NCBI GenBank assembly: GCA_944358535.1
Contig: CALVRH010000009.1
Coordinates: forward strand, 7,125 to 39,124
DNA length: 32,000 nucleotides
Source: an uncultured Bacilli bacterium
GTDB lineage: Bacteria > Bacillota_I > Bacilli_A > RF39 > UBA660
Direction: 5' to 3'
In this document: one piece after another, positions 11,277 through 31,110 of the stretch
How the letters are laid out: the number at the start of each line of letters is the position of its first letter
Numbering within the stretch: the stretch's first letter is position 1
The notes under the pieces: generated by a model
Told to the model about the DNA's origin: nothing
The model's input: only the letters and a program-made list of their open reading frames with translations
The model's database searches: none
Translations under genes and position numbers: made by a program

Positions 11277-13682
11277 TCATTTTTTTTCGTTTTTGCCACC
11301 ATTACAGCTTGTTTCTTTCAAACATTTTTCTAAGTTATTTTGGGTTCTTTTATACCAAAAATCGTTAACATCAACTTTATCTTTAAAAATATTAATCATC
11401 TTTTCTAATGGTGCGATAGCTTTCGAATATTGCTGGTTATCCATATATAGATTGGCTAAAGCCTCATAGGATGACAATAAAGAAAAATCGGTTTTGTTAA
11501 AAAAGCTTTCTTTATATTCTATGACTTCGTTTATTTCTTTTAAGGATTTATCAAAATTTCCAATTTTACCATCAGCGACGCCTAAAGCTAGTAAAGCGGT
11601 TTGCGTTTCATCGCTATCTTTGGTGTTTCTTAAGACAAAAATGTCATATGATTTTTGGGCGTATTCTAAGGCTTTTTGGTAGTCTTTTAACTGAGCATAG
11701 GCTCTTGACATAGCCAAATAAGTAGAACCTATTTTACGGTGATTTGATTCTAAAGTAGAGCTAAAAATATTATAGGATTCTTCTAATAAAGGAATAGCGT
11801 TTTGAGCTTTTCCAATTTTAATATAAGAAAAGGCCCTAGATTTTAAGCAATCTGCAAGCAAGTAGTTTTGATCAGTATTAGTTTTTCTTAAAATTTCAAT
11901 GGCTTTTTCATTCCACTCGTTAGCTTTATCTATTTGATAAGATTTATTATAAATAAAACGGATTAAATCACAGGTTTTAGCTACTTCGTGAGAGAATTTA
12001 CCATATATTTCTTTTTGTTTTTCTAGAATATCAAAGGTGATTTTTAGTGCTAAATCATAATATTCTAAATCTCTGAAAAACTTTGCAATGTTTATATAAT
12101 TTGGAATATTATCTTTGGTTACATTTGGAAATTTGGTATACATATTATGAATGACACTACCATATATTTTTCTTTGTTCCGATTTTATTTGCCATGAATC
12201 TTTTTTAGTTAACTCTTTAAATAGTATTTTACAGTTATCTAAATTTGGATGGCACTGTTCTATGATGAGTTCGGAGATTAATGGATGTAGAGCGATGGTA
12301 TCTCTTACCCAATCGTGAATAATCCAACTCTTTTTTATTAATTTGTTAATTTCTTTACCAGTTTCAATATGGCATAAATCCATAAACTCTTCAAAGTCAA
12401 AGCCAGAGATTGGAAAGAAAGTTAAATTCATTAAAATATATTTTTGGGTTTCAGAAAGAGCAGAAATATCATACAGCATGTACAGACAATTTTTGACTGA
12501 GGTTGTTTTTTGATGATATTCGACTATTTCATTTTGGCTGGCGATTCCATTTTGAGTAAGTTCTTTTAACATTTCTTTTGGTTTTTGACGAGTCTCTTTC
12601 ATAACTTTAGCTAAAAGTTCGATGATTAATGTATGGCCTTGAACTAATTTGAATATTTTTAAAAGCGCAGGAATGTTTTCATCTTTGACTTTTCGGCCAT
12701 AGTTTTGTTCGAATAATTTTAATTGTTCATCTTGGTCTTGAAAAGCATCTATTTTTATATTTTGGATACCTAATTCTTTGAAGTCATTTCTAGTAGTGAA
12801 AATCATGTGGTAGTTACCGTTTAATAAATTTAATAATTCTTCATCTTGGTCAGTGTCAAAATTATCGACAATTATTAACATTTTAGTGGAAGCTAATTCT
12901 TTTAATTTTTTTAATTTTCTTTCAAAGTATTCTTTATCGGTTTCTAACTGGCCATTTTCTTTTTGTTTTCGAGTAATATTTTCAATTTCTAGATTTGGAG
13001 AATTTAAAATAGTATTTATGATTGAGGTATCAAAGCTTAAAAAAATAATAGTATCATATTCTTCTCTATAAATGTTGGCATATTTTTTTACTATTTCACT
13101 TTTACCAATTCCTCCCATACCAGTTATAAAAACTTTCTGTTCTGTGGTTAGAATTTCATGAATTTTTTCTAGTTCTACTTTACGACCAATAAAATTATGA
13201 TTATTTAAAATAGTACTGTTTTTTAATTCTTCTTGGGTTAGTTTTATTTGATTATTTTGAACAGGCATTTTTAATAAGAAACAAATCCTATCGCGCAACT
13301 CTTCTATTCTTTTTTCCATTGGTGGATCAATAGCATCAATCCAGTGTAATCTTCTTAAGTAGTAACTAGCATCTGGACTAATTTCTTGATTTGATATATG
13401 AAATGGTAAAATATAAAATTCTTCTTTAGCTCTCACTCTTTCAAAGGCCTCGTTAATTTCATTTAAGACGTCTTGGGAGTTAGAGGCTTCTTGGTTTAAT
13501 ATAAGTAAGAATATTTTACAGTTTCTAATAGCTCTGACAATATCGCCAGCATATTGACTTTCAACATTTCTTGGTGCATACCAACATTTGATTTTTGAGG
13601 ATTCTAAGACATTACATATAGCTTCGACTATGGAGCGAGAAGATTTTGTATGGTAACTAATAAAAACATCTATATCTAGCAT
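11277..13682 (-). CDS. TIR - NB-ARC-like P-loop NTPase - TPR protein (STAND/NLR-like, probable antiphage)
   Basis: 801 aa. N-terminal TIR look (DVFISYHTKSS..., KIFLLILNQEASNSQDVLNEINEAF with a candidate catalytic Glu in VLNEI). Walker A ITGMGGIGKSE and Walker B MLIIVDNFD. NB-ARC GLPLAL-like VQGHTLIIELLAK. The C-terminal ~250 aa are TPR-like repeats (Y..A...YEKA periodicity). AAGGAG SD. Confidence 0.85.
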   Translation of the reverse strand: MLDIDVFISYHTKSSRSIVEAICNVLESSKIKCWYAPRNVESQYAGDIVRAIRNCKIFLLILNQEASNSQDVLNEINEAFERVRAKEEFYILPFHISNQEISPDASYYLRRLHWIDAIDPPMEKRIEELRDRICFLLKMPVQNNQIKLTQEELKNSTILNNHNFIGRKVELEKIHEILTTEQKVFITGMGGIGKSEIVKKYANIYREEYDTIIFLSFDTSIINTILNSPNLEIENITRKQKENGQLETDKEYFERKLKKLKELASTKMLIIVDNFDTDQDEELLNLLNGNYHMIFTTRNDFKELGIQNIKIDAFQDQDEQLKLFEQNYGRKVKDENIPALLKIFKLVQGHTLIIELLAKVMKETRQKPKEMLKELTQNGIASQNEIVEYHQKTTSVKNCLYMLYDISALSETQKYILMNLTFFPISGFDFEEFMDLCHIETGKEINKLIKKSWIIHDWVRDTIALHPLISELIIEQCHPNLDNCKILFKELTKKDSWQIKSEQRKIYGSVIHNMYTKFPNVTKDNIPNYINIAKFFRDLEYYDLALKITFDILEKQKEIYGKFSHEVAKTCDLIRFIYNKSYQIDKANEWNEKAIEILRKTNTDQNYLLADCLKSRAFSYIKIGKAQNAIPLLEESYNIFSSTLESNHRKIGSTYLAMSRAYAQLKDYQKALEYAQKSYDIFVLRNTKDSDETQTALLALGVADGKIGNFDKSLKEINEVIEYKESFFNKTDFSLLSSYEALANLYMDNQQYSKAIAPLEKMINIFKDKVDVNDFWYKRTQNNLEKCLKETSCNGGKNEKK

Positions 13683-13876: not shown

Positions 13877-15967
13877 TTATTTCTTTTCTATTTTATAACC
13901 CAATTTATCTAAGACTTTTAAAGATTCAATTAGTGTATTTCGATCATAATCTTTTTCTTGTTCAGATAGCATTTCATATGGAACTAATGATGAGTGTGTT
14001 TTTAAATTATCATTGGTTTTGGGGCCGTATGTCCAGCCTTCATTGAATTTATTTTTCGCCCATACTTCGTGAACGTTTTTGGCAAGTTTTTCAGAAATGT
14101 CCATTACTTCTTTACTTAATGTAACTTGACTAGTATCAATAGGATTTGGTGTGTATACTTTAGTTTTTGCACTATTGGTAATTTTTGTACCTAATACGAT
14201 ATCTGGTATTTTTTGGATGATAAATTTATCTTTATTTTGTAGAGGGATTCCTATAGCTTGTTCAACTTGTGGTAGTTTATCATAGTCGGTTAAGGCTGGA
14301 TGAAGCTTTGCTAAAGAATTTATATGACTATTTATGACTTTTTTATAGTTATTAACTTCATCTGGGGTAGCCACTTTATAACCGTCACTTCGCATATAGG
14401 CCATCCATCTGGCGTGTTCATTTTTGATTAAAATATCTAAAGTATTAGGATTTTTTAAACATTGTTTAAAATTTGTCATATCTTGATTTATATCACCGGT
14501 AAATTTATCTTTTAAAATGGAATAAATTTTATATTTGATATGAATAGCGAAAGCCCTTGAAGATTTGATATTATAGTCTTTTTCATAGAAGTCATCAAGG
14601 TTTTGGCTATTAGGATTATAAGCAAAGTGAACTCGTTTTGTCATTTCTTCTATTTGTGAATTGATAATTGGAGATGAATAATACATCTGTCTAATACTAC
14701 CAAAAGCATTTAAATTATATTTATTACCCTTTTGATTTTTTAGATTATTTATTTGTTTATTTTTTAAAGGATTTTCTATCCATATATTAATAATAGGTTG
14801 TTGGTTAAAACCATTTTTATTTAGAAAATATCTACGCAATATTAAGGCTGATTTAAGACTATCTTCTTCACTGTTTAAAGCGATAACAATATAATTTATA
14901 TTAGAAATTTTATCTAACATTTTTTCCATTTTGTTAGATGTGACGTCTACTTCTATAAAATTATAGTTATAATTTGGTAATAACTCTGGATAGTTTAAAG
15001 CAATTTGCTCTTTAATTTTGTGAGCGTTTTTATCAATGACTGTAATCTCAAGACTATATCCAGGTATTTGACCGCACCAAGTAATTGTTTGCAGAAATTC
15101 TAAGCCAACTTTGCCACAGCCAATAATTAAGACTGATATTTGTTTATTTTTAGCGTTTAAGTATAATGGTTTTTCTTCTAAGACTTTACATACTGCACGT
15201 TCAGTTTCATTGACGATGTCTAATCTTATTTTTCCTTTATTAGCGGAATCTAGAATAGTGCTGGCCATAGAGTTATTGGTGATAAAATAAATTTTTATAT
15301 GATTTTGACTATATTTGTCGATTAGGTGAAGGACTTGATTCATCCCTTCATCTTCGTTATTAGATAAGATATAATAAGTTATATTCTTAGAGTTTATATA
15401 TTTTATGTCGATATTATCTACGTTTTCTTCTAGTTTTAAGGCTTTTAGCTTTTTTAATCTTGAATCAAATTCATTATTACTAAGGTAATTTGCGAATATA
15501 AAGATGTTATCTTTATTGTTTATTTTTTCGGCAATGGTGATAGATTTTTCATTTAATTCTGAGAAAATAATGACTTCTTTTTTTATAATGAATCTAAGTT
15601 TTAGTTTTGTAGTGATACCATTTAACAAGGAAGCTAAAAATGATACTGTTAAAAATGGCATGATTAAAAGCAAAAAGTATATTAGCCAAATGTATAATTG
15701 ATCTAATATAGATTCTGTATGAAGACTACTTACTAATAAAATATCTTCACCTAGAATAATTGTTTGTGCAGAGTAGATGATTGCATAAACTATTTTGGAT
15801 ATAAAATCACGTCCAGGGCTAATTGGATATATCAATATTGTAAGGGCAAAAGCCATACCAATTAAAATTGTTGGAATAATTTTTTTCAGATTATAAGTGT
15901 ATTTTCTTTGTTTTATTAAAGTAAATATTAATACCAATATAGCAAGTAAGAAATAAAACATATTCAT
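13877..15967 (-). CDS. Multi-pass membrane protein with Rossmann (TrkA-N/KTN-like) modules and a C-terminal RyR domain
   Basis: About four N-terminal hydrophobic helices and a GxGxxG Rossmann motif (VLIIGCGKVGLEF). The C-terminus LAKNVHEVWAKNKFNEGWTYGPKTNDNLKTHSSLVPYEMLSEQEKDYDRNTLIESLKVLDKLGYKI closely matches the bacterial RyR (ryanodine-receptor repeat) domain consensus. A degenerate RyR-like segment (EHARWMAYMRSDGYK...KLHPALTDYDKLP) precedes it. The start is set at ATG 15967, because the track's GTG 15976 is part of the GAGGTG SD. Confidence 0.75.
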   Translation of the reverse strand: MNMFYFLLAILVLIFTLIKQRKYTYNLKKIIPTILIGMAFALTILIYPISPGRDFISKIVYAIIYSAQTIILGEDILLVSSLHTESILDQLYIWLIYFLLLIMPFLTVSFLASLLNGITTKLKLRFIIKKEVIIFSELNEKSITIAEKINNKDNIFIFANYLSNNEFDSRLKKLKALKLEENVDNIDIKYINSKNITYYILSNNEDEGMNQVLHLIDKYSQNHIKIYFITNNSMASTILDSANKGKIRLDIVNETERAVCKVLEEKPLYLNAKNKQISVLIIGCGKVGLEFLQTITWCGQIPGYSLEITVIDKNAHKIKEQIALNYPELLPNYNYNFIEVDVTSNKMEKMLDKISNINYIVIALNSEEDSLKSALILRRYFLNKNGFNQQPIINIWIENPLKNKQINNLKNQKGNKYNLNAFGSIRQMYYSSPIINSQIEEMTKRVHFAYNPNSQNLDDFYEKDYNIKSSRAFAIHIKYKIYSILKDKFTGDINQDMTNFKQCLKNPNTLDILIKNEHARWMAYMRSDGYKVATPDEVNNYKKVINSHINSLAKLHPALTDYDKLPQVEQAIGIPLQNKDKFIIQKIPDIVLGTKITNSAKTKVYTPNPIDTSQVTLSKEVMDISEKLAKNVHEVWAKNKFNEGWTYGPKTNDNLKTHSSLVPYEMLSEQEKDYDRNTLIESLKVLDKLGYKIEKK

Positions 15968-16118
15968 TTTTTTCACCTCATATCAATTTTTATTACGTTT
16001 CAATTATAACAAAAAGATGGGAAAAATACTACTAACATATTTTTATAGTAAATTTAATAATTTTTCAGATAAATTTCACAAAAGTTGGTTACTATATTTA
16101 TATAAGAAGGAGATGTAT

Positions 16119-19868: not shown

Positions 19869-22800
19869 TTACTTTTTATGTATGAAAAGTTGCATTTTAT
19901 TTCTTAATGATAATAAGTTATCTATAATTTTTGTTTGTTCCATTTCTTTGATGATAGATTTTTTTCGAAGATAATAATTTACTTCATAGTTTTCATCATA
20001 GTCTTGATTTAACCATCGAAGATTTGGAATAAAAGAAAACATGTTTACCTTAAAGCATAACTTTACTAAGTCAAACATTAATGGGTCTTTGTATATAGCT
20101 GATTGAATATCTTCAAACATGTTATAACTAATATTAAAGTTAAAATATTTTATCATTTGAATAGCTGTTTTTATATCTGTTTCTTTTTGGGTTGCTTGTA
20201 AATAGTTTTGAATACACGGGATGACTATGGCTTTTTCCCAAAGGGATGGCAAAACTATTTTTATCATCCTATATATATTTAATTCATCATCAGTGTTTTC
20301 ATTTAAAATATTATAGTATTCTTCTATATATATTTTTAGATTTCCTATATAGTAAGTTTTTTTATTTTTACTTACATAATAAAGATAAAGATATGTTTGT
20401 AATAAAGGATGACAGAAGTAATACCATTTACCAGCTTTAACGATTATTTTACTATCTAAAGGATTAATTTTATGTTTAGCTAATTTTTCTTCTGTAAAAA
20501 CAATCTCATTATTTTTGATTAATTTATAGGCAAAATAAGATAGTTTATTTATTTCTTTTAAATTACCTTCAAATATAAAGCTTAAAAAGCCAAAGAAGAA
20601 CATTTGATTATTTATATAAGTATTTGTTTCGAAAAATTGATTTAATAAGTTCATGACAATGGTATTATGTTTTAAATCCTCAAATAATGGGCCTTGAAGG
20701 TTATTTATTTTATCTATTATTTCTTTATTAAAGTGATGTTTATGCATATAATCTTGGATATTTATAATATAATGTGATTTACCTAATAGTCTTTCGATTT
20801 TTGTATCTATTAATTTTTTTGTTTCATTTTGATTTGATTTTGAAGGGGTAATTTTAGGTGATGCATAATTTATTTCTGGATAACTAATTTCATTATTTTT
20901 TGTTTCGTTGTTGTAAATTTCTTCTAGACTTTTAGTTAGTTTAGAAGGCATTTTGATGTTTATGTTTTTATATAATCTTGGGACCCATTCATAAATTAGA
21001 TTTTCAAGTTCTAATTCATCCATATCGTAATAATTTATGTCCGAATATATACAATCTTCGATGGCTTTTTTTATGTCACAGCGATTAGTTTTCATATATT
21101 GTTTAAATACTTTTGGATATAGTTCATTTATGTCAGATAATTTATCTATTTGATAAAAGGTTTCTGATTCATATACAAGGTTATCTAAAACATGGTTTAT
21201 AAATTCTGAAAAATCGTGTTTATTTTTGAAGGCATTTAACAAATTAAAGATGTCATCTAAATCAAATTTATATAGTAAGCCAAACATAATATCGTCAAAG
21301 TTAGATAAAAAATCTTCTGTTTCAGAGATTAAGTATTTTTTTATTTTAGAATTTTTTTCAAAGTTGGTGGTCTTGACTAAAGTGGTTAGTATACTTATAT
21401 ATTTGGTATTTTTTTCACAATTTATTAAATGATTTAAAATATGCTCTTCTAGGTTCTTTTTCATTTTTTCATCTTCATAATTTACATATTTCCATAAGGT
21501 AATGGCTTTTTGAGGTGTTAGATCATTAGTTAAATAGTTAAAGTAAAAATTAATATTTTCTTTAAGAAAATGATTTAAGAAATCCTTATAGGTAGGATTT
21601 TTTAAACTTATAGTAGGCTCTTTGGTTTTAGTTATATTTGTGAAGGTGTTTTCGGTTATAGTTATATAATCTGAAAATTTATCGCCGGTATTTTTAAAGA
21701 TATTATTAAAATCTATTTTTAGTTTTTCAATTGAGATTTGTCCTTCATTTAAAAATATTAACAAGAGTAATACTTTGATTTCTACTGGCTGCTTTTTTAG
21801 ATCTTTTTTAAAGTGTTCATAAGGGTGTTTTAGGTAGTCCATGAATTCAATATAAAGATCAAATGGCTTTAGGTGTTTGTATTTATTATAATCTTTAAAG
21901 AAATCATGTATTAATCTTGGAGTATAGTTTGGAGAGTTTAAAATATTACTATAAAACATTAAAAGTATTTTTGTGTGTTCATATGATAAAGGATAATTTA
22001 CTATATGGTTATATAAAATATTAAATTTGGTTATTAATGATAAGTCATTTGCTTTTAATAAAAACTGGTGTTTAGTGAATTCATTACTTATTTTGTTATT
22101 TATTTCTAAGCCTTCTTGAAATATATATTCGCGGCTAGTTATTATTAAATATTTATTTTCTTGCTCTATTAATGATATAAAATTATATAATTTCTTTTGC
22201 ATTTCAGATGATATACTTAAATTATATTCTGTGTCACCCCAAAAATCGTCAAAAAAGTATATTTGATTTTTATTTTTTTGATATACATCATATAATTCAT
22301 CTACTGAAGAGACTTTGATAAATTCAGAATTTTTAATCTTTTTTATTAAATTAATTATTAGCATACGGCCTAGTGTTGTTTTTCCAATACCTGGCTCACC
22401 TGTTATGATGATTACTTTTTTATTTAATAGATTTTCTAAGGCTTGTTTATAGCTATCGGTAATGGCATAAATTTCTTTTTCTTTATTTATTTCGTTTAGT
22501 TCAATTTGTGTTTGCAGATGAATACTTTTATTTTTTATGTTTTCTATTGTATTAAAGAGGATGTTACTACTTGGAATATATAACTGATAGTATTTTAATT
22601 CTAATTCATGATATTCTTTTTTTGATAGTAAGCGATTTAACATTTCTTTATCTATAATATCATTCATTTTTAAATGGCCGGAAAACATTTCAATTAATGT
22701 TTCTTTTTGTTCTTTTTTTAGATTTTGAGAAGTAATTAAAATATATCTATCAAACTTTTGGACTCTTGTGACTTCTTTTTTTAAACTATTTTTTAATGTA

Positions 22801-22988
22801 TTAAAGTTTTCTTTTTGATTTTTAACTTGTCCAATTATTGTTCCATCCGCATTATAAAAGTCAATACCTTTATCTTTACCTAGACCATTATTATAAAATT
22901 GCTCTTTTTCTTTAATTGATATAAATTCGGTTGCAAATTCTTGAAATTCCTCGGCTGATAATGAATCATAATAAGAATATTTTGTCAT
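19869..22988 (-). CDS. Mrr-like PD-(D/E)xK nuclease - STAND P-loop NTPase - long helical C-terminal region (Avs-like antiphage architecture)
   Basis: 1039 aa. N-terminal FQEFATEFI...GKDKGIDFYNADGTIIGQVKNQ has the Mrr_cat-type D...QxK motif. Walker A IIITGEPGIGKTT (nt ~22377-22403) and Walker B IYFFDDFWG. About 750 aa of alpha-helical sequence follow with no recognised repeats. GAAGGTGA SD. Confidence 0.78.
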   Translation of the reverse strand: MTKYSYYDSLSAEEFQEFATEFISIKEKEQFYNNGLGKDKGIDFYNADGTIIGQVKNQKENFNTLKNSLKKEVTRVQKFDRYILITSQNLKKEQKETLIEMFSGHLKMNDIIDKEMLNRLLSKKEYHELELKYYQLYIPSSNILFNTIENIKNKSIHLQTQIELNEINKEKEIYAITDSYKQALENLLNKKVIIITGEPGIGKTTLGRMLIINLIKKIKNSEFIKVSSVDELYDVYQKNKNQIYFFDDFWGDTEYNLSISSEMQKKLYNFISLIEQENKYLIITSREYIFQEGLEINNKISNEFTKHQFLLKANDLSLITKFNILYNHIVNYPLSYEHTKILLMFYSNILNSPNYTPRLIHDFFKDYNKYKHLKPFDLYIEFMDYLKHPYEHFKKDLKKQPVEIKVLLLLIFLNEGQISIEKLKIDFNNIFKNTGDKFSDYITITENTFTNITKTKEPTISLKNPTYKDFLNHFLKENINFYFNYLTNDLTPQKAITLWKYVNYEDEKMKKNLEEHILNHLINCEKNTKYISILTTLVKTTNFEKNSKIKKYLISETEDFLSNFDDIMFGLLYKFDLDDIFNLLNAFKNKHDFSEFINHVLDNLVYESETFYQIDKLSDINELYPKVFKQYMKTNRCDIKKAIEDCIYSDINYYDMDELELENLIYEWVPRLYKNINIKMPSKLTKSLEEIYNNETKNNEISYPEINYASPKITPSKSNQNETKKLIDTKIERLLGKSHYIINIQDYMHKHHFNKEIIDKINNLQGPLFEDLKHNTIVMNLLNQFFETNTYINNQMFFFGFLSFIFEGNLKEINKLSYFAYKLIKNNEIVFTEEKLAKHKINPLDSKIIVKAGKWYYFCHPLLQTYLYLYYVSKNKKTYYIGNLKIYIEEYYNILNENTDDELNIYRMIKIVLPSLWEKAIVIPCIQNYLQATQKETDIKTAIQMIKYFNFNISYNMFEDIQSAIYKDPLMFDLVKLCFKVNMFSFIPNLRWLNQDYDENYEVNYYLRKKSIIKEMEQTKIIDNLLSLRNKMQLFIHKK

Positions 22989-23151: not shown

Positions 23152-24066
23152 TTAACCTAAAGTATAAGGATTTGACTGACTACCATCTCCTCCCGTGATT
23201 TGGACTTCAGAAGAAAGAGTTATGGCAGGCCTGACCGCATAGCCCGTAAAGCTCGCGATGTAGTTGAGCACGTCGCCATTGCTACTCACGCCGAACACAT
23301 AGTCAGAGGTGCCAGAACGAAGCGACAAGATCCACCAACTAATACTATTAAACATCCACGTTGTATTTTTACATGTACTAGAATTATTATTGTTCAAGCT
23401 TAATGTTTTACAGTTTGAATTTGAATTCGTTCTTAAATATTCGCTTACTGTTGGTAATGCTATTTTTCCATTCCATGTTGTACTATTTTCATTATTGACT
23501 TGACTCGCTAAATCATTATTACTAAGAGTTACTGGACCTATACTATAATCATATGCAACTATTTGACCTTGTGCTTCACTACTTAAACTATTTAAATATG
23601 TTCCATTTAAATATGTATTTAATGTAGCTGGTCTGGCCCAATTATTTTTATTTGATGTATCCCATGCTAAAGTATAGCTTGTATTTATATTTGCTGTTTT
23701 CATTATCTTTATAGTTCCATCACAACCTACAGAAATAATTCTCCAGCCGGCTTTCTCTCCATTAAAAGTTACATAATTATTGGGGTTTGCTCCAGTAAAG
23801 AAATATCTACACTCATACGGATCTTTTTCTAGTCCATTATCTTCTATTATTTGTTCCCCTGGTGGCTTAGCTGTACATACTCCATATAACTCATCTATTG
23901 CTCCTTGAACATTTGTACTCTGCAAGCCACTTACACTATTATCATATGTTGTTTGATTAGAAGGAAAATATGTTGCTGCTATTACACTTATACTAATTGC
24001 TGTTATTACTCCTAATACAAAACCAGGTAAATATCCAAAAACTACTTTTTTTATTCTCTCTTTCAT
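23152..24066 (-). CDS. Membrane-anchored surface protein with a lectin-like (DUF6273/DUF1566-like by eye) C-terminal domain
   Basis: The start is set at ATG 24066 (MKERIKK; AAGGAGG SD). It has an N-terminal TM helix. Motifs seen: NVQGAIDELY, WRIISV..DGTIKIM, GKIALPTVSEYL, WWILSLRS and AVRPAITL. Confidence 0.6.
   Translation of the reverse strand: MKERIKKVVFGYLPGFVLGVITAISISVIAATYFPSNQTTYDNSVSGLQSTNVQGAIDELYGVCTAKPPGEQIIEDNGLEKDPYECRYFFTGANPNNYVTFNGEKAGWRIISVGCDGTIKIMKTANINTSYTLAWDTSNKNNWARPATLNTYLNGTYLNSLSSEAQGQIVAYDYSIGPVTLSNNDLASQVNNENSTTWNGKIALPTVSEYLRTNSNSNCKTLSLNNNNSSTCKNTTWMFNSISWWILSLRSGTSDYVFGVSSNGDVLNYIASFTGYAVRPAITLSSEVQITGGDGSQSNPYTLG
23224..23340 (-). other. Adenine-depleted, GC-rich 117-nt segment at the 3' end of the surface-protein gene (candidate DGR variable region)
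   Basis: Hand count on the coding strand: 66/117 G+C (~56%), only 19 A (16%), and 0 of 39 codons end in A. The rest of the gene and window are strongly A/T-rich with frequent A-ending codons. Confidence 0.35.
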
Positions 24067-24098
24067 TTCTAACTCCTCCTTATTTTTATAATAACACA

Positions 24099-24176
24099 TT
24101 TTAGGACAAAAAGTATACCTTTTTAGGACAAAAAGTTTACTTATTTATTTTAACAATTGTGGGACAATTAGTTTGG
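24099..24176. promoter_or_regulatory. Three copies of a GGACAA-N4-5-AGT(A/T)T motif in the divergent promoter region (putative operator sites)
   Basis: TTTTAGGACAAAAAGTATAC (24099-24118) and TTTTAGGACAAAAAGTTTAC (24121-24140) are 19/20 identical and 22 nt apart. A third degenerate copy, GTGGGACAATTAGTTTGG, lies at 24159-24176. Confidence 0.55.
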
Positions 24177-24183
24177 TGATAAG

Positions 24184-24432
24184 ATGAACGGATTACAGAA
24201 TTATAACAATGATTTTAAAAAAATTATTTGCAAAAATATAAAGAAATTTAGAAAAGAAAAAGAGATTCGATTAATGGATTTAGCAGAAATGTTAGAGGTT
24301 TCTCCAGAATATTTAAAGAGAATTGAGTCACCAAATGATGATAAAAAAACTTGTTCATTAACTTTGCTTTATAAATTATCATTGATTTTTAATAAAAAGT
24401 TGGATGATTTTTTAGTGGACGATCAAAAATGA
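24184..24432 (+). CDS. XRE-family HTH transcriptional regulator
   Basis: 82 aa. IKKFRKEKEIRLMDLAEMLEVSPEYLKRIES...LLYKLSLIFNKKLDDFL fits the HTH_3/Cro-C1 pattern. GGTGA SD. Confidence 0.8.
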   Translation: MNGLQNYNNDFKKIICKNIKKFRKEKEIRLMDLAEMLEVSPEYLKRIESPNDDKKTCSLTLLYKLSLIFNKKLDDFLVDDQK

Positions 24433-24480
24433 TTGTCTTTTTATTTACATTGGTGTTACAATAGGTTTTGTGAGGTATTT

Positions 24481-25398
24481 ATGACGGAAAAGGAATTTTT
24501 AATTTGTGATATGGTTAGCGAGGGGTATACTTTAAACGAGATAGCCAAAGCTTTATGGCTTAGTTCTAGGCAAGTACATCAAAAGATTTTAAAGTTAAAC
24601 AGTGATGGCTATTTTATATCCCCTATTTATTTTGATAACGGGAATATTAAATATGTTTTTGATAAGTTTGATACTGAGCATACAATAAATATTTCTTTAG
24701 AGGATAGTTCAAGATTTAAAGCTTTAGTTATTTCTGATATTCATATAGGAAATGAACTTGAAAATTTAGGCTATTTATACAAAGTTTATGATTATGCGAG
24801 GAATCATGATATTCATGTTATTTTAAATTGCGGGGATTTGATTGATGGAAGCTTTACGAAAGGCAAGCAAATAGTTAATGATATAGATGAACAAATTGAA
24901 AGGGTTATTGATGATTATCCATTTGATAAAAGTATTTTAAATTTTATATGTTTTGGTAATCATGATTATAGTGCTTTTGAAAATGGGAGGGATATATCTA
25001 TAGCGATTTCAAATAGAAGGCCAGATTTAGTAAGTGGTGGTTATGGTTTTTCTTTAATAAATATTGAAAAGGATCAATTTGTAATATATCATCCTTTATA
25101 TGAAAAAATATCTATACCTAATAAGTTAATTTTGGAAGGACATCATCATAAAGCTTTATTTAAAATAGCAAGGAATAATTTTTTTGTAAATGTACCTCCA
25201 CTTAGTGATTTATGTTTTGGCCTTCAAGAAAATCCAGGAATGATTGAAATGGAATTATTTTTGAATAACGGTTTTATAAATAATGGTCATTTTAAACAAA
25301 TTGGGGTAAAAAAAAGATTTGAGGTTTATGGGGAAAATGATTTAGAATTTTTCTTAAAGCATGACAAAATAGATGAAAAAAAGATAATTTTTAAATAA
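24481..25398 (+). CDS. N-terminal HTH + calcineurin-like metallophosphoesterase (paralog 1)
   Basis: The start is set at ATG 24481 (GTGAGG SD). The track's TTG 24433 directly abuts the XRE stop. HTH-like EKEFLICDMVSEGYTLNEIAKALWLSSRQVHQKI. Metallophosphoesterase motifs SDIHIGN, CGDLIDG, FGNHDY, EGHHHK. Confidence 0.7.
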   Translation: MTEKEFLICDMVSEGYTLNEIAKALWLSSRQVHQKILKLNSDGYFISPIYFDNGNIKYVFDKFDTEHTINISLEDSSRFKALVISDIHIGNELENLGYLYKVYDYARNHDIHVILNCGDLIDGSFTKGKQIVNDIDEQIERVIDDYPFDKSILNFICFGNHDYSAFENGRDISIAISNRRPDLVSGGYGFSLINIEKDQFVIYHPLYEKISIPNKLILEGHHHKALFKIARNNFFVNVPPLSDLCFGLQENPGMIEMELFLNNGFINNGHFKQIGVKKRFEVYGENDLEFFLKHDKIDEKKIIFK

Positions 25399-25408
25399 GG
25401 AGTTTTAT

Positions 25409-26422
25409 ATGTTTGATGAAGATGAAATTATTAGCAAATTAAATGAAGAAAAAAATTTAAATGAGGTTGCACAAGAGTTAAATATATCTGTATTAGAGGC
25501 CCATAAAAAAATTATGGCTTTAAAAAATGGTGGGATGGTATTTAAAAAAATTATTTATGATGATGGAAATATAAATTATTATATTAAAAGATTTCCAGAT
25601 TTTTATAAAACTAATACTGCCGAACTTAGGGTTAAAAATCATTTTGATTTATCTGCCATGTTGATAAGTGATACTCATTTCGGCAATAGTTTAGCTAATA
25701 TGGATTATTTAGATAAGATTTATAATTACTGTAAGGACTGTGATATACATATCATTATTAATGGTGGAGATTTGATTGATGGCTCATTTAATAGGGAATC
25801 TCAGGATATTTGTGATCCTTTAAAACAATTAGAGTATGTGATTAAAAATCATCCGTTTGACGCAAATATTTTAAATTTAATATGTTTAGGTAATCACGAT
25901 TTTAGTTTATATAAATCTGGCATTGATATTAAAAAGGCTATAGAAATTTCACGAAGTGATTTGATTCCTTTAGGATATGGACTTGGTATTATAAATGTAG
26001 AAAATGATCAATTTTTTGTAAGGCATCAGATACCGGAATATAATTTTGAACAGATTAATGGAAAGTTTATATTGGAAGGACATAAGCACAAAATGGCTTT
26101 TACTGATGAGGGAGATGGATTTTTAATAAATATTCCGACGCTAAGTGATTTAACTTTAGGAAAACACGAATTACCTGGGGCTGTTAGAATGGATTTATTT
26201 TTTGATGAAGATGGTAATATTAATTCTGGAAGGTTTGAACAATTTATATATAATGGTAAAATGTGTACGGTAAATGAAACTTTGCTTAATTTTAATTTGA
26301 ATCATGAGATGATTTATGAGAAAGATGTAAGGCCAAAATTAAAGATTAAAAAGTATGAATATAATGGGCTTAGTCAAACTGAGAAGTTTTACAAAAGGCT
26401 TGAAAAGAAAAAAGAATTCTAA
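25409..26422 (+). CDS. N-terminal HTH + calcineurin-like metallophosphoesterase (paralog 2)
   Basis: 337 aa, AAGGAG SD, 10-nt gap after paralog 1. It is colinear with paralog 1: SDTHFGN, GGDLIDG, LGNHDF, EGHKHK, IPTLSDL versus VPPLSDL. Confidence 0.7.
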   Translation: MFDEDEIISKLNEEKNLNEVAQELNISVLEAHKKIMALKNGGMVFKKIIYDDGNINYYIKRFPDFYKTNTAELRVKNHFDLSAMLISDTHFGNSLANMDYLDKIYNYCKDCDIHIIINGGDLIDGSFNRESQDICDPLKQLEYVIKNHPFDANILNLICLGNHDFSLYKSGIDIKKAIEISRSDLIPLGYGLGIINVENDQFFVRHQIPEYNFEQINGKFILEGHKHKMAFTDEGDGFLINIPTLSDLTLGKHELPGAVRMDLFFDEDGNINSGRFEQFIYNGKMCTVNETLLNFNLNHEMIYEKDVRPKLKIKKYEYNGLSQTEKFYKRLEKKKEF

Positions 26423-26434
26423 CCAGAATTCTTT
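26411..26434. terminator. Hairpin between the convergent HTH-phosphoesterase and activase operons
   Basis: 10-bp stem AAAGAATTCT (26411-26420) / AGAATTCTTT (26425-26434) with loop AACC. It overlaps both stop codons. The T-tract is short. Confidence 0.45.
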
Positions 26435-27369
26435 TAATATTTACCGCATTTACTACCCCATGAGTCGACTAGTTCATTATTACGATATATTTTAAGTAGC
26501 TCGCAGCTATTTGGACAGCGATGACATTCAAAAGCTTTGGTTTGAAATTTTATGTTTTTCATTTCTAACGAGTAAGTATGGCCTGTTTTATGTTTTTTAG
26601 CTAAAACAGCAATGCCAATAGCTCCCATTAGATGACTATTTTCATCGACGATGATGTCTTCATTTAATATTTCTTTAAAGTATTTTACAACACCTTTATT
26701 TTTAGATACCCCTCCTTGAAAGATGACTGGACCAATTATTTTTTTCCCTTTACCAACGTTATTTAAATAATTTAAGACAACACTTTTACAAAGTCCAGCA
26801 ATGATATCTTCTTTGGGGTAACCAACCTGCGCTTTATGAACTAGATCAGATTCGGCAAAGACGGTACATCTAGCGGCTATTTTGACGGGGTTTTTAGATT
26901 TTAAGGCATAGTCTCCAAATTCTTCAACTTTTATACCTAATCTTTTGGCTTGACTTGATAAAAAAGAGCCAGTTCCTGCTGCACATAAGGTATTCATAGC
27001 ATAGTTAGTGATGATACCGTTTTTAATTAGAATTATTTTAGAGTCTTGGCCGCCTATTTCTAATATGGTTCTAACATCTGGATAGAATGTTAATGTACCA
27101 ATGGCGTGAGCGGTTATCTCGTTTTTGACAACCGAAGCTTTAAGCATTAGACCAATTAATTTTCTAGCGCTTCCTGTGGTTCCTATGCCTTTTATTTGAC
27201 AGTTTTTAGGCAAGTGTTTTTTTAATATATCTAAAAGTTTTCTTACAGCATTAGTAGGATTACCTTCGGTCCATATATAAGCTTTGGTAATAATTTTATT
27301 TTCATCATCAATAATAACTCCTTTGGTTGAAATGGAGCCAATATCAACACCTAAGTAACAATCTTTCAT
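26434..27369 (-). CDS. BcrAD_BadFG-family ATPase (2-hydroxyacyl-CoA dehydratase activase-like)
   Basis: 311 aa. ASKHA start YLGVDIGSISTKGVII. Cluster-ligand contexts LCAAGTGSFL and ARCTVFAESD. C-terminal Cys motif CHRCPNSCE...GSKCGKY. ATGA overlap with the upstream gene. Confidence 0.82.
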   Translation of the reverse strand: MKDCYLGVDIGSISTKGVIIDDENKIITKAYIWTEGNPTNAVRKLLDILKKHLPKNCQIKGIGTTGSARKLIGLMLKASVVKNEITAHAIGTLTFYPDVRTILEIGGQDSKIILIKNGIITNYAMNTLCAAGTGSFLSSQAKRLGIKVEEFGDYALKSKNPVKIAARCTVFAESDLVHKAQVGYPKEDIIAGLCKSVVLNYLNNVGKGKKIIGPVIFQGGVSKNKGVVKYFKEILNEDIIVDENSHLMGAIGIAVLAKKHKTGHTYSLEMKNIKFQTKAFECHRCPNSCELLKIYRNNELVDSWGSKCGKY

Positions 27370-29599: not shown

Positions 29600-29850
29600 G
29601 ACATTAGCTTACCTCACGGTAAGCTTTTTCTACTTCATAGCAGCCTTAGGCTTCTCCATAGACCAGTATCGGATAGTCGCTACCCTAATTTATATTTGTT
29701 GTTTGTCAAAATTTATGATTAGATAGATTGTTCTAGATATAACATATATTTTTCTAAACCTTTAAACATTATATTAACTGCCGCATTATAATCACGTTCA
29801 TGATGTGTATGACATACTGGACATTCCCATTTTCTTATGCTTAAATCTTT
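29600..29850 (-). ncRNA. Candidate TnpB-associated omega/right-end RNA scaffold (boundaries approximate)
   Basis: Directly 3' of the tnpB stop on the minus strand lies an unusually GC-rich, hairpin-forming stretch (…GGGTAGCGACTATCCGATACTGGTCTATGGAGAAGCCTAAGGCTGCTATGAAG…AGCTTACCGTGAGGTAAGCT). In known TnpB systems the guide RNA overlaps the tnpB 3' end and the IS right end. Confidence 0.35.
29605..29629 (+). terminator. Rho-independent terminator after the DUF1540-like ORF (could also be the IS right-end hairpin)
   Basis: AGCTTACC (29605-29612) / GGTAAGCT (29617-29624) with loop TCAC, followed by TTTT. Confidence 0.55.
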
Positions 29851-30867
29851 TACCTCTCTATTTTGATAATTACAAATGTTACAGATTTGACTACTTGGGT
29901 AAAATCTGTCTATTTGTATTAATTTTTTGTTATTCCAATTAGCTTTGTACTTAAGCACTCTGATTATTTCTGATATTGGATTTTCATTTAGTCCTTTTGC
30001 CACATAGTGATTTTTCTGCATATTTCTTACATCTAAATCTTCAGTTACTATAATGTCATTTTCGTTTATTAATTTATTGGTTATATCATGTATCATATGT
30101 TTTCTTGCATTTCTTATTTTTTGATATAACCTTTGTATTTTAAGTTTCATTTTATATCTGTTTTTACTTCCAGACTTACATCTAGATATTCCTCTTTGTA
30201 AACCTACCATTCTTTTATTGTTTAGTTTAATGGTATTTTCTATTTTCTCATTAAATGATGTTACTATTAAATCTTTTATTCCTAAATCTATACCAATTAT
30301 ACTTGTAGGTACAAAAGATGGTCTTATTAGTTCTTCTTCTATTAAAACACTTACATAATATTTACCGGCATCTTTTTTAATTACTGCACTTTTAATCTCA
30401 CCAGGCACTACTTCTTTATTTCTATATCCTCTTATTTTTACTTCTTTTAATTTTGGTAAAGTGATTGTTTTATTTTTTAAATCTAGTTTTATACTATTAT
30501 AATTATTTCCTTTATAACTACTTTTAATATTATTAGTTTTATAACTTTCATGTACTCCTTTTGCTTTAAATTTAGGATAACCGTTTCCATTAAAAAATCT
30601 TTTATAAGCATCTTCTAAATTAAATAGACTATTTCGAAGTGCACAGCTATCTACTTCTTTCAAAAACGGATACTCTTTAGAAAGTGATGGTATTAATTTC
30701 ATTTGTTCATAAGCTGATTTACTTTTTCCAGTTTTTTTATATTCTTTTATTTTATCATCCAAAAAATGATTATATATAAATCTAGAGCAACCAATTGTTT
30801 TATTAATTAACTCTTCTTGCTCTTTAGTTGGATACATTCTAAACACATAGCCTTTAAGTACTTGCAT
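29719..30867 (-). CDS. tnpB: TnpB (IS200/IS605-family OrfB, RuvC-like RNA-guided nuclease)
   Basis: LKGYVFRMYPTKEQEELINKTIGCSRFIYNHFL N-terminus. RuvC-I IGIDLGIKD, RuvC-II IIVTEDLD, zinc ribbon CNICNY...CPVCHTHH, RuvC-III RDYNAAVNI. The start is probably ATG 30867 (MQVLKGY) rather than 30885. Confidence 0.9.
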   Translation of the reverse strand: MQVLKGYVFRMYPTKEQEELINKTIGCSRFIYNHFLDDKIKEYKKTGKSKSAYEQMKLIPSLSKEYPFLKEVDSCALRNSLFNLEDAYKRFFNGNGYPKFKAKGVHESYKTNNIKSSYKGNNYNSIKLDLKNKTITLPKLKEVKIRGYRNKEVVPGEIKSAVIKKDAGKYYVSVLIEEELIRPSFVPTSIIGIDLGIKDLIVTSFNEKIENTIKLNNKRMVGLQRGISRCKSGSKNRYKMKLKIQRLYQKIRNARKHMIHDITNKLINENDIIVTEDLDVRNMQKNHYVAKGLNENPISEIIRVLKYKANWNNKKLIQIDRFYPSSQICNICNYQNREVKDLSIRKWECPVCHTHHERDYNAAVNIMFKGLEKYMLYLEQSI

Positions 30868-31110
30868 ACCATCACCTTCTATCATTGCTCTTCACTATAT
30901 CACGAATAGTTATATTTGTAAATAACTTTTTGCAAACTTTTACCTTTTACAAAGCAAATTCCTAGTATATAAAAAAATTGCGATGGTGCATAAACTTATA
31001 CATCGCTTTTTTGTTATGTGTTAAATAAAAGTATTTTGGGTAAAATTTACTAAAAATGTATATAGATTTTCATTTATTTGGTATAATTAAATGTGTTAGG
31101 AGGCGGTTTT

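Follow-up and report, generated by a model that had tools for sequence, protein, structure and literature searches.

The window analyzed here, a stretch of 32,000 nucleotides with a G+C content of ~28% from an uncultured Bacilli bacterium, encodes on its plus strand two adjacent paralogous proteins, MPE_A and MPE_B, in which an N-terminal winged helix is fused to a metallophosphoesterase (MPE) domain. The original prediction, made from the sequence alone, had described the two genes and an upstream gene for an XRE-family regulator as a three-gene module, possibly related to defence. We compared the locus with its relatives, the nearest of which are uncultured gut Bacilli (Firmicutes CAG:822 and Candidatus Coprosoma-like metagenome-assembled genomes, with chromosomes of 1.3-1.5 Mb). 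The window shows a lineage-specific gene duplication, and the three-gene defence-like module does not hold. The features of the locus are the following:

24184..24432, plus strand: XRE-family helix-turn-helix (HTH) gene, 82 residues; Pfam HTH_3, E 4e-6
24417..24438, plus strand: terminator-like hairpin that overlaps the stop codon of the XRE gene and has a U-run after it; folding free energy (dG) -9.7 kcal/mol, z -3.6 (terminator scan and folding)
24433..24480, plus strand: intergenic; a promoter scan places here a promoter-like site for MPE_A (TTGTCT, 18 nt, TG-extended TACAAT), and a GAGG ribosome-binding site is present
24481..25398, plus strand: MPE_A, 305 residues; winged helix at residues 1-60, linker strand, minimal MPE domain from residue ~79 onward to the C-terminus; no C-terminal tail motif
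25409..26422, plus strand: MPE_B, 337 residues; architecture of MPE_A, extended by a basic linker and by a C-terminal helix with LSQTEKFYKRL
26410..26435, both strands: AT-rich 11-bp hairpin AAAAGAATTCT/AGAATTCTTTT, common to the convergent MPE_B and BcrAD-type genes

Judged by sequence conservation, MPE_A almost certainly starts at the ATG at 24481 and not at the TTG at 24433. Its homologues begin with M-T-E/D, a GAGG ribosome-binding site precedes this ATG, and upstream of the MPE_A orthologue about 20 related loci share the block TTGTCT-N18-TG-n-TACAAT-N8-10-GAGGTG-N5-6-ATGAC, whether the XRE gene is present there or not. With this start the XRE stop codon would not abut MPE_A, contrary to what had been proposed, and a gap of 48 nt would lie between the two genes. 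The distance of 10 nt between MPE_A and MPE_B was borne out, and a GGAG ribosome-binding site was found before MPE_B. The hairpin at the end, shared with the convergent BcrAD-type gene downstream of MPE_B, is also real: it folds with a dG of -9.8 kcal/mol (z -4.5) on the plus strand and of -9.3 kcal/mol (z -2.5) on the minus strand, includes both stop codons of the convergent pair and is probably a bidirectional terminator. MPE_A and MPE_B likely form a two-gene transcription unit, and to this extent the proposed operon stands, but its extension to three genes is doubtful because the terminator-like hairpin and the promoter intervene before MPE_A.

The notion that the XRE regulator heads the module also fared badly in the comparison with relatives. 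The XRE gene is truncated or a remnant at three related loci (L005, L011 and L012) and absent from six others (L001, L003 and L006-L009), with MPE_A kept throughout, and it is 87-91% identical between loci whose MPE_A is only 60-72% identical. Because of the intervening hairpin and conserved promoter, and because relatives keep the MPE genes without an intact XRE gene, neither co-transcription nor co-inheritance could be upheld; the XRE gene is probably an upstream neighbour with a transcription unit of its own, and not an integral or stable part of the MPE unit. In relatives it co-occurs with a gene for a DUF6273 or an LRR_5 surface protein, and in the window the gene divergent from it on the upstream side encodes a DUF6273 membrane/surface protein (23152-24099, minus strand) with an N-terminal hydrophobic segment and a match to PHROG 9958. 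The intergenic region between these two divergent genes carries a 22-nt tandem direct repeat, two copies of TTTTAGGACAAAAAGTWTACYT at 24099-24142, which is a candidate operator of the XRE protein; no further copy was found near the MPE_A promoter.

MPE_A and MPE_B are 42% identical over 301 residues (BLASTP E 1e-75), and both exceeded the gathering cut-off of 21.5 bits of Pfam Metallophos (PF00149; 34.5 bits, E 3.7e-8 for MPE_A and 28.7 bits, E 2.2e-6 for MPE_B), a model that was matched by 51 of 54 members of the family to which they belong. The MPE motif set (DxH, GDxxD, GNHD, H and GHxH) is complete in both, with the metal-binding residues D86/H88, D119/D122, N160/H161/D162, H204 and H221/H223 in MPE_A and D88/H90, D121/D124, H163/D164, H206 and H225/H227 in MPE_B. 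These positions are hardly ever substituted among 411 family sequences, in which D86 was found in 409, H88 and D119 in 408 each, H161 in 407, H204 and H223 in 403 each and H221 in 402; position 160 is N in 330 and D in 77. As the active-site residues are near-invariant across the family, both paralogues look catalytically competent, in agreement with the original prediction. Outside the canonical MPE motifs, R180, D182 and a YPFDK stretch are invariant.

AlphaFold2 models built with family alignments reached a predicted local distance difference test score (pLDDT) of 94.2 and a predicted template modelling score (pTM) of 0.93 for MPE_A, and 91.6 and 0.89, respectively, for MPE_B, and confirmed in both proteins the beta-alpha-beta-alpha-beta sandwich fold of the MPE superfamily. 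Residues 1-60 are predicted with pLDDT >90 as three helices followed by a beta-hairpin, that is, a winged helix, in which DNGNIKY of MPE_A and DDGNINY of MPE_B form the wing turn; the segments DNGNIKYVF and DDGNINYYI had rightly been seen as hairpin-like and as following an N-terminal HTH. The high pTM points to a rigid packing of the winged helix on the catalytic domain. No HTH model reached the Pfam cut-off for this N-terminal domain; matches below it were to GerE in 24 of the 54 members and also to HTH_28, HTH_40, TrmB, HTH_11/24 and ArsR. The recognition helix is conserved among MPE_A orthologues.

A Foldseek search of the PDB with the monomer model gave 94 matches at E <= 0.001, and the 50 listed were all MPE-fold proteins. 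Among the matches listed, Vps29, MJ0936 (1s3l) and YfcE (1su1) came first, at E ~3e-7 to 1e-6, followed by PolD DP1, Mre11/SbcD and the single-stranded DNA (ssDNA) endonuclease MPE of P. putida (6nvo). A profile search of the PDB returned Mre11 at E 0.002, DP1 at E 0.013 and SbcD at E 0.04, and in PHROGs the 'DNA repair exonuclease' family phrog_7339 was matched at E 7e-7 to 2e-6. The sequence-profile affinities thus lean, weakly, to nuclease-type MPEs.

The family is large. A word-indexed search recovered 80 clusters, and an exhaustive profile search over 1.84 billion representatives recovered 454 at E <= 1e-30 and 1797 at E <= 1e-10; at 50% identity the family comprises at least 454 clusters, and it is unnamed. 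Nearly all of the best 150 profile matches cover the beginning of the profile and hence consist of winged helix plus MPE, with only a few truncated or devoid of the N-terminus, and overall identity within the family is only ~30%. Its main hosts are small-genome gut Bacilli, namely CAG-822/Coprosoma-like organisms, Erysipelotrichaceae and Coprovivens. No family name was found among the 80 clusters or for the eight clusters held at NCBI, Pfam yielded only the generic Metallophos model, NCBIfam yielded nothing above cut-off, and our search for a solved structure of the family or a paper on it found none. The remark that this HTH-phosphoesterase fusion is not a described system was therefore correct: the superfamily is very well known, but the architecture encoded here is uncharacterised. 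Some members (P0058, P0134, P0153 and P0192, from metagenomes) carry an N-terminal extension of 80-190 residues that begins with MGK-x-L-x-TIYEYL...RYGxDL...PKLRRLL, a stretch conserved between them and with no match in Pfam; in P0153 and P0192 there is additionally a long acidic low-complexity linker.

The most conserved feature of the family outside the active site is a tail motif, S-Q-I-[DE]-K-F-N-x-[RK]-[YW]-x-[RK], which lies at the C-terminal end of 91 of 272 representatives, preceded by a lysine-rich stretch and placed six residues from the C-terminus in 62 of the 91. Within these 91 sequences Q and F are each present in 91, K in 89, N in 82 and I in 79. About two thirds of the family, MPE_A included, are without it, and in MPE_B it takes the variant form LSQTEKFYKRL (window 26373-26405), modelled by AlphaFold2 as a helix at residues 323-335 with pLDDT ~80. 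The motif was seen on no other open reading frame of the gathered loci and in no paper that we found. The tail could be a partner-binding peptide, a helix docking on its own protein or a membrane-targeting helix. With its Q-I-[DE]-K-F core the tail resembles the bacterial beta-clamp-binding motif (Q-phi-x-L-F; cf. QL[SD]LF), an idea that we considered and dropped: clamp binding depends critically on positions 1, 4 and 5 of that motif (for position 4, see bioRxiv 10.64898/2026.05.27.728225), and position 4 of the tail is lysine in 89 of 91 sequences, for which reason we make no claim of clamp binding.

Among 121 loci from genomes and metagenomes, 108 carry one copy of the family gene and 13 carry two, and all 13 tandem pairs belong to the lineage of the window; MPE_A and MPE_B go back to a single chromosomal gene that was duplicated in tandem in this lineage only. 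In a neighbour-joining tree, a clade of tail-less A proteins of 305 residues is sister to a clade of tailed B proteins of 332-337 residues, and both lie inside a family whose deeper branches are mostly tailed. By this tree, MPE_B retains the ancestral architecture and MPE_A is a derived copy that lost its tail. Some genomes later kept only MPE_A; MPE_B is missing at eight loci (L006, L008, L009, L016-L019 and L037). Since several close relatives carry only MPE_A, an A-B heterodimer, which the original prediction had envisaged, cannot be obligatory. The gene order of the lineage is topA, a variable spacer, MPE_A, MPE_B where present, and then a BcrAD/HGD-D/DUF2229 operon. The spacer is empty or holds a TnpB gene, genes for DUF6273 or LRR surface proteins together with the XRE gene or, in this window only, an nSTAND3 gene. 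Across the lineage MPE_A is 55-72% and MPE_B 49-71% identical, and the flanking genes are 80-94% identical.

Outside this lineage the family gene is chromosomal and lies amid housekeeping genes, with no conserved partner gene. The order ddl-ruvA-MPE occurs in four clusters, with lexA convergent downstream in three of these. Coordinates of three loci in which the family gene directly follows ruvA are L028 7372-9035, L030 7375-9008 and L123 2544-4324, with a convergent lexA in L030 and L123. In Firmicutes ruvB usually follows ruvA, and in the ruvA clade the family gene occupies that slot. Upstream of rplS, the family gene is preceded either by ligA-mscL, which places ligA two genes upstream, or by a gene for a SpaA surface protein. 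One member has recO-McrBC divergent from it and genes for the LigD phosphoesterase and the LigD primase-polymerase following it; another lies between cinA, 20 nt upstream, and an alcohol dehydrogenase gene, and a further one is divergent from mgsA/rarA, with a Xer recombinase gene two genes downstream. In a deep-branching member femAB is divergent and topA follows immediately downstream on the strand of the family gene, so that topA neighbours the family in two arrangements, co-directional here and divergent in the window's lineage. In two lineages ftsW precedes the family gene, and other contexts involve folD, gatCAB, pheT/rluD and genes for glycosyltransferases or collagen-like proteins. Regulation by the SOS response was considered and rejected, as no LexA (Cheo) box GAAC-N4-GTTC was found upstream of any family gene, and no riboswitch or leader RNA was found upstream of the window gene or at ten representative loci.

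Relatives on mobile elements are distant. A tblastn search of PLSDB plasmids gave no match, and among INPHARED phages only one generic MPE, of an archaeal virus, was returned. Viral contigs of IMG/VR encode homologues of 379-413 residues that are ~25% identical and match the family hidden Markov model at E 1e-35 to 1e-14, with an extra N-terminal domain followed by winged helix and MPE. Three of these phage homologues (L126 1631-2785, L127 2028-3167 and L130 4272-5432) measure 379-386 residues. Two proteins were scanned against PHROGs, those of L126 and L130, and both matched phrog_7339 (best E 4e-17); the L126 protein, which is encoded next to genes for a helicase loader, a sigma factor and a ParB-methyltransferase, also matched phrog_284 ('exonuclease') over nearly its full length. 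In BFVD, structure A0A516LV74 aligned with the whole of the MPE_B model (E 5e-16).

We tentatively favour, at somewhat less than even confidence, the reading that the family is a DNA-bound MPE, probably Mn-dependent, with a nuclease or end-cleaning activity that is used in repair, in recombination or in housekeeping linked to replication. The winged helix would place the enzyme on DNA, and a di-metal centre, probably with Mn2+, would cleave a phosphoester in or on it, possibly as a nuclease on single strands or ends or by cleaning blocked termini such as 3'-phosphates and protein-DNA adducts; this activity would then serve repair, recombination or replication-associated housekeeping. The C-terminal helix SQI[DE]KFNx[RK][YW], which MPE_B shares with about a third of the family, would probably mediate a protein contact or self-regulation, and as MPE_A is without it, the two paralogues may divide the work or pair, with MPE_A alone sufficing in view of the relatives that have no MPE_B. 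A narrower version, in which a winged-helix-tethered enzyme of small-genome Bacilli cleans 3'-phosphates or topoisomerase-DNA phosphotyrosyl adducts or acts as a trans-acting exonuclease, brought by its tail to a hub of replication or repair, would account for the recurrence of topA, ruvA/lexA and the LigD genes as neighbours, and we consider it rather improbable in this specific form.

The evidence for the favoured reading comes from several sides. The catalytic residues are near-invariant, the N-terminal domain is modelled as a winged helix with recurrent matches below threshold to DNA-binding HTH families and a conserved recognition helix in MPE_A orthologues, and the nearest relatives by sequence are MPEs of the nuclease type (Mre11, PolD DP1, SbcD and phrog_7339), with DP1, Mre11/SbcD and 6nvo also among the Foldseek matches behind the minimal MPEs. 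Genes of DNA metabolism adjoin the family gene or lie close to it in independent lineages (topA, ruvA/lexA, the LigD genes, cinA, mgsA/rarA and ligA), the phage homologues with winged helix and MPE fall in 'exonuclease' families, and the P. putida MPE in its repair operon (PMC7826289) offers a precedent by analogy. DNA-metabolism genes occupy 7-8 of about 28 immediate-neighbour slots, which against a background of 5-10% corresponds to a binomial p of ~5e-5 to 0.02; this enrichment is only suggestive because the categories were chosen post hoc and some contexts may share ancestry. The post hoc nature of the tally is one of several points that weigh against a repair enzyme. Many contexts have no adjoining DNA gene (ftsW twice, rplS, folD, gatCAB and surface proteins), genes of the cell envelope recur too (ftsW, ddl, femAB and one for a penicillin-binding protein), and the LexA box is missing upstream of all family genes. 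The MPE genes have diverged much more than the genes around them, a pattern uncommon for a core repair enzyme. Minimal MPEs of the YfcE, MJ0936 and Vps29 type lead the fold matches, and for these either a generic phosphodiesterase activity is known or no activity at all; a capping domain of the Mre11 type was not seen, as judged without model coordinates, and no SbcC/Rad50 gene adjoins the family gene in the ~15 independent neighbourhoods. A DNA-tethered nuclease or phosphodiesterase, as first proposed, is a reasonable reading of a fusion of winged helix and intact MPE that is real. If the DNA-repair reading is true, the family would be an unstudied group of enzymes in abundant, mostly uncultured gut Bacilli of reduced genome, with distant homologues in phages, and may fill a gap in how these bacteria process damaged DNA ends. 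Its size, its restriction largely to gut Bacilli and its sharply conserved C-terminal motif are of specialist interest, and through the motif a binding partner could be sought directly.

Two other readings draw on the same material. The family could be an enzyme-coupled transcription factor, in which the winged helix recognises specific operators and a small phosphoester (such as a cyclic or linear nucleotide, ADP-ribose or diadenosine tetraphosphate) is hydrolysed or sensed by the MPE domain, tying a metabolite level to gene expression as in bifunctional regulators of the BirA, NadR and NrtR type; it would then be a new type of one-component system. The resemblance of the N-terminal domain to LuxR/GerE, ArsR, MarR and TrmB HTH domains, its recognition helix conserved among orthologues and the small-molecule-type minimal MPEs YfcE and MJ0936 as best fold matches are in line with such a regulator, as are the neighbours cinA (nicotinamide mononucleotide deamidase family) and the NAD-dependent ligase gene ligA in two lineages. 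However, the neighbours change in nearly every lineage without a conserved target operon; upstream of MPE_A orthologues no conserved palindrome or operator was seen beyond the promoter itself, no riboswitch or regulatory RNA lies nearby, and the sequence affinities are with nuclease-type MPEs, so that we regard this explanation as unlikely. Alternatively, a membrane-associated phosphoesterase with a role in the cell envelope could use the basic linker and the amphipathic C-terminal helix as a membrane-targeting sequence. The tail is indeed amphipathic, with I, F and Y/W on one face and flanking K/R, mostly six residues from the C-terminus after the lysine-rich stretch, and envelope genes recur as neighbours (ftsW immediately upstream in two lineages, and ddl, femAB, a penicillin-binding protein gene, mscL and lepB). 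A winged-helix DNA-binding domain is hard to reconcile with an envelope role, though, two thirds of the family including MPE_A have no tail, the moderate confidence of the tail helix in the AlphaFold2 monomer is compatible with docking on the protein itself, and in small genomes, which interleave housekeeping genes, envelope neighbours may be there by chance. We hold this reading to be very unlikely.

The idea of a defence or conflict module, with the XRE protein controlling a heterodimeric nuclease or phosphodiesterase that is tethered to DNA and either acts against phage DNA or breaks down nucleotide immune signals, is very unlikely in our judgement. It can invoke the STAND NTPase genes nearby (nSTAND3/PDC-S73 at 19869-22988 and TIR-NB-ARC-TPR at 11277-13682), the low conservation of the MPE genes relative to their flanks, the McrBC next to one relative, the distant phage homologues and the matches of the XRE protein, itself generic, to the PADLOC models HTH_VI and capH. 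Yet neither MPE_A nor MPE_B had a match at E <= 0.1 in PADLOC-DB 2.0, plasmids gave no match and deposited phage genomes no close relative. Across the lineage the gene keeps its position between topA and the hydroxyacyl-CoA-dehydratase-type operon, with the insertion of the STAND gene unique to the window, and other lineages place it among ribosomal, tRNA-synthetase and cell-division genes. The distribution is therefore not island-like and has no conserved partners or steady defence neighbours, and the XRE gene is split off by the terminator-like hairpin and the promoter and is dispensable in relatives. A DNA-repair nuclease is more likely than a phage-defence module. The original prediction had itself named single-copy housekeeping homologues with a known role as evidence that would speak against it; the homologues are mainly single-copy and chromosomal, but no known role emerged for them.

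Several genes of the conflict or mobile type were noted elsewhere in the window. The nSTAND3 NTPase of 1039 residues (19869-22988, minus strand), with its gene located in the variable topA-MPE_A spacer, matched Pfam nSTAND3 at E 9e-39 and the PADLOC candidate PDC-S73 at E 6e-82, and its N-terminus matched Aga_TIR-PNTD models. Because the gene is absent from all 27 related genome loci (27/27), it looks like a strain-specific defence-type insertion. A gene for an 801-residue TIR-NB-ARC-TPR protein (11277-13682, minus strand) adjoins one for a 699-residue protein with a C-terminal RyR domain (13877-15976, minus strand); both look like STAND or conflict-type genes, and with nSTAND3 they make the stretch look defence-rich. 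A TnpB/IS605 OrfB gene (29719-30885, minus strand; OrfB_IS605 plus a Cas12f1-like TNB domain) has copies 78-91% identical in relatives (L007 3727-4588 and 8655-9818, L015 18825-19392), one of them in the topA-MPE_A spacer of L007, and as these copies occupy other positions the element appears to have been mobile within the lineage.

Compared with known MPEs, the family resembles YfcE, MJ0936 and Vps29 (COG0622) in its catalytic core of ~170-220 residues with all five metal-binding motifs, and these were the best Foldseek matches among those listed (E ~3e-7, template modelling score 0.6-0.7 normalised to the target). Unlike the family, they have neither an N-terminal winged helix nor a C-terminal tail motif, and MPE_A and MPE_B fall well short of the YfcE model TIGR00040 (17.0 and 16.2 bits versus a cut-off of 56.25). 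Archaeal PolD DP1, an MPE-type 3'-5' proofreading exonuclease, was matched through NCBIfam PRK04036 (E 6e-4 to 1.5e-3) and PDB entries 6knb and 5ihe, with a Foldseek alignment over nearly the whole length, but at 19 bits versus a cut-off of 445, with an alignment root-mean-square deviation of 7-12 Å, and with no OB fold and no DP2 partner on the side of the family. Mre11/SbcD share motifs I-III (SDxHxG, GDLxD and GNHD) as the best PDB sequence matches, and the DNA-repair gene contexts and the phage homologues in SbcD-like or DNA repair exonuclease families point the same way, whereas the family protein is much shorter and has its winged helix before the catalytic domain; no capping domain was seen, as judged without model coordinates, and only ~50 residues follow motif V, which the model shows as beta strands. 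The P. putida MPE belongs to the Lhr-MPE repair cluster and is a Mn-dependent ssDNA endonuclease, with His81 and His113 as nuclease-specific histidines (PMC7826289; PDB 6nvo). It has no winged helix, and no Lhr helicase gene is linked to the family gene. It is nonetheless a small stand-alone MPE that acts on DNA and is encoded beside repair genes; its structure matched the fold at E 6e-5, and one family member lies directly upstream of the genes for the LigD phosphoesterase and primase-polymerase.

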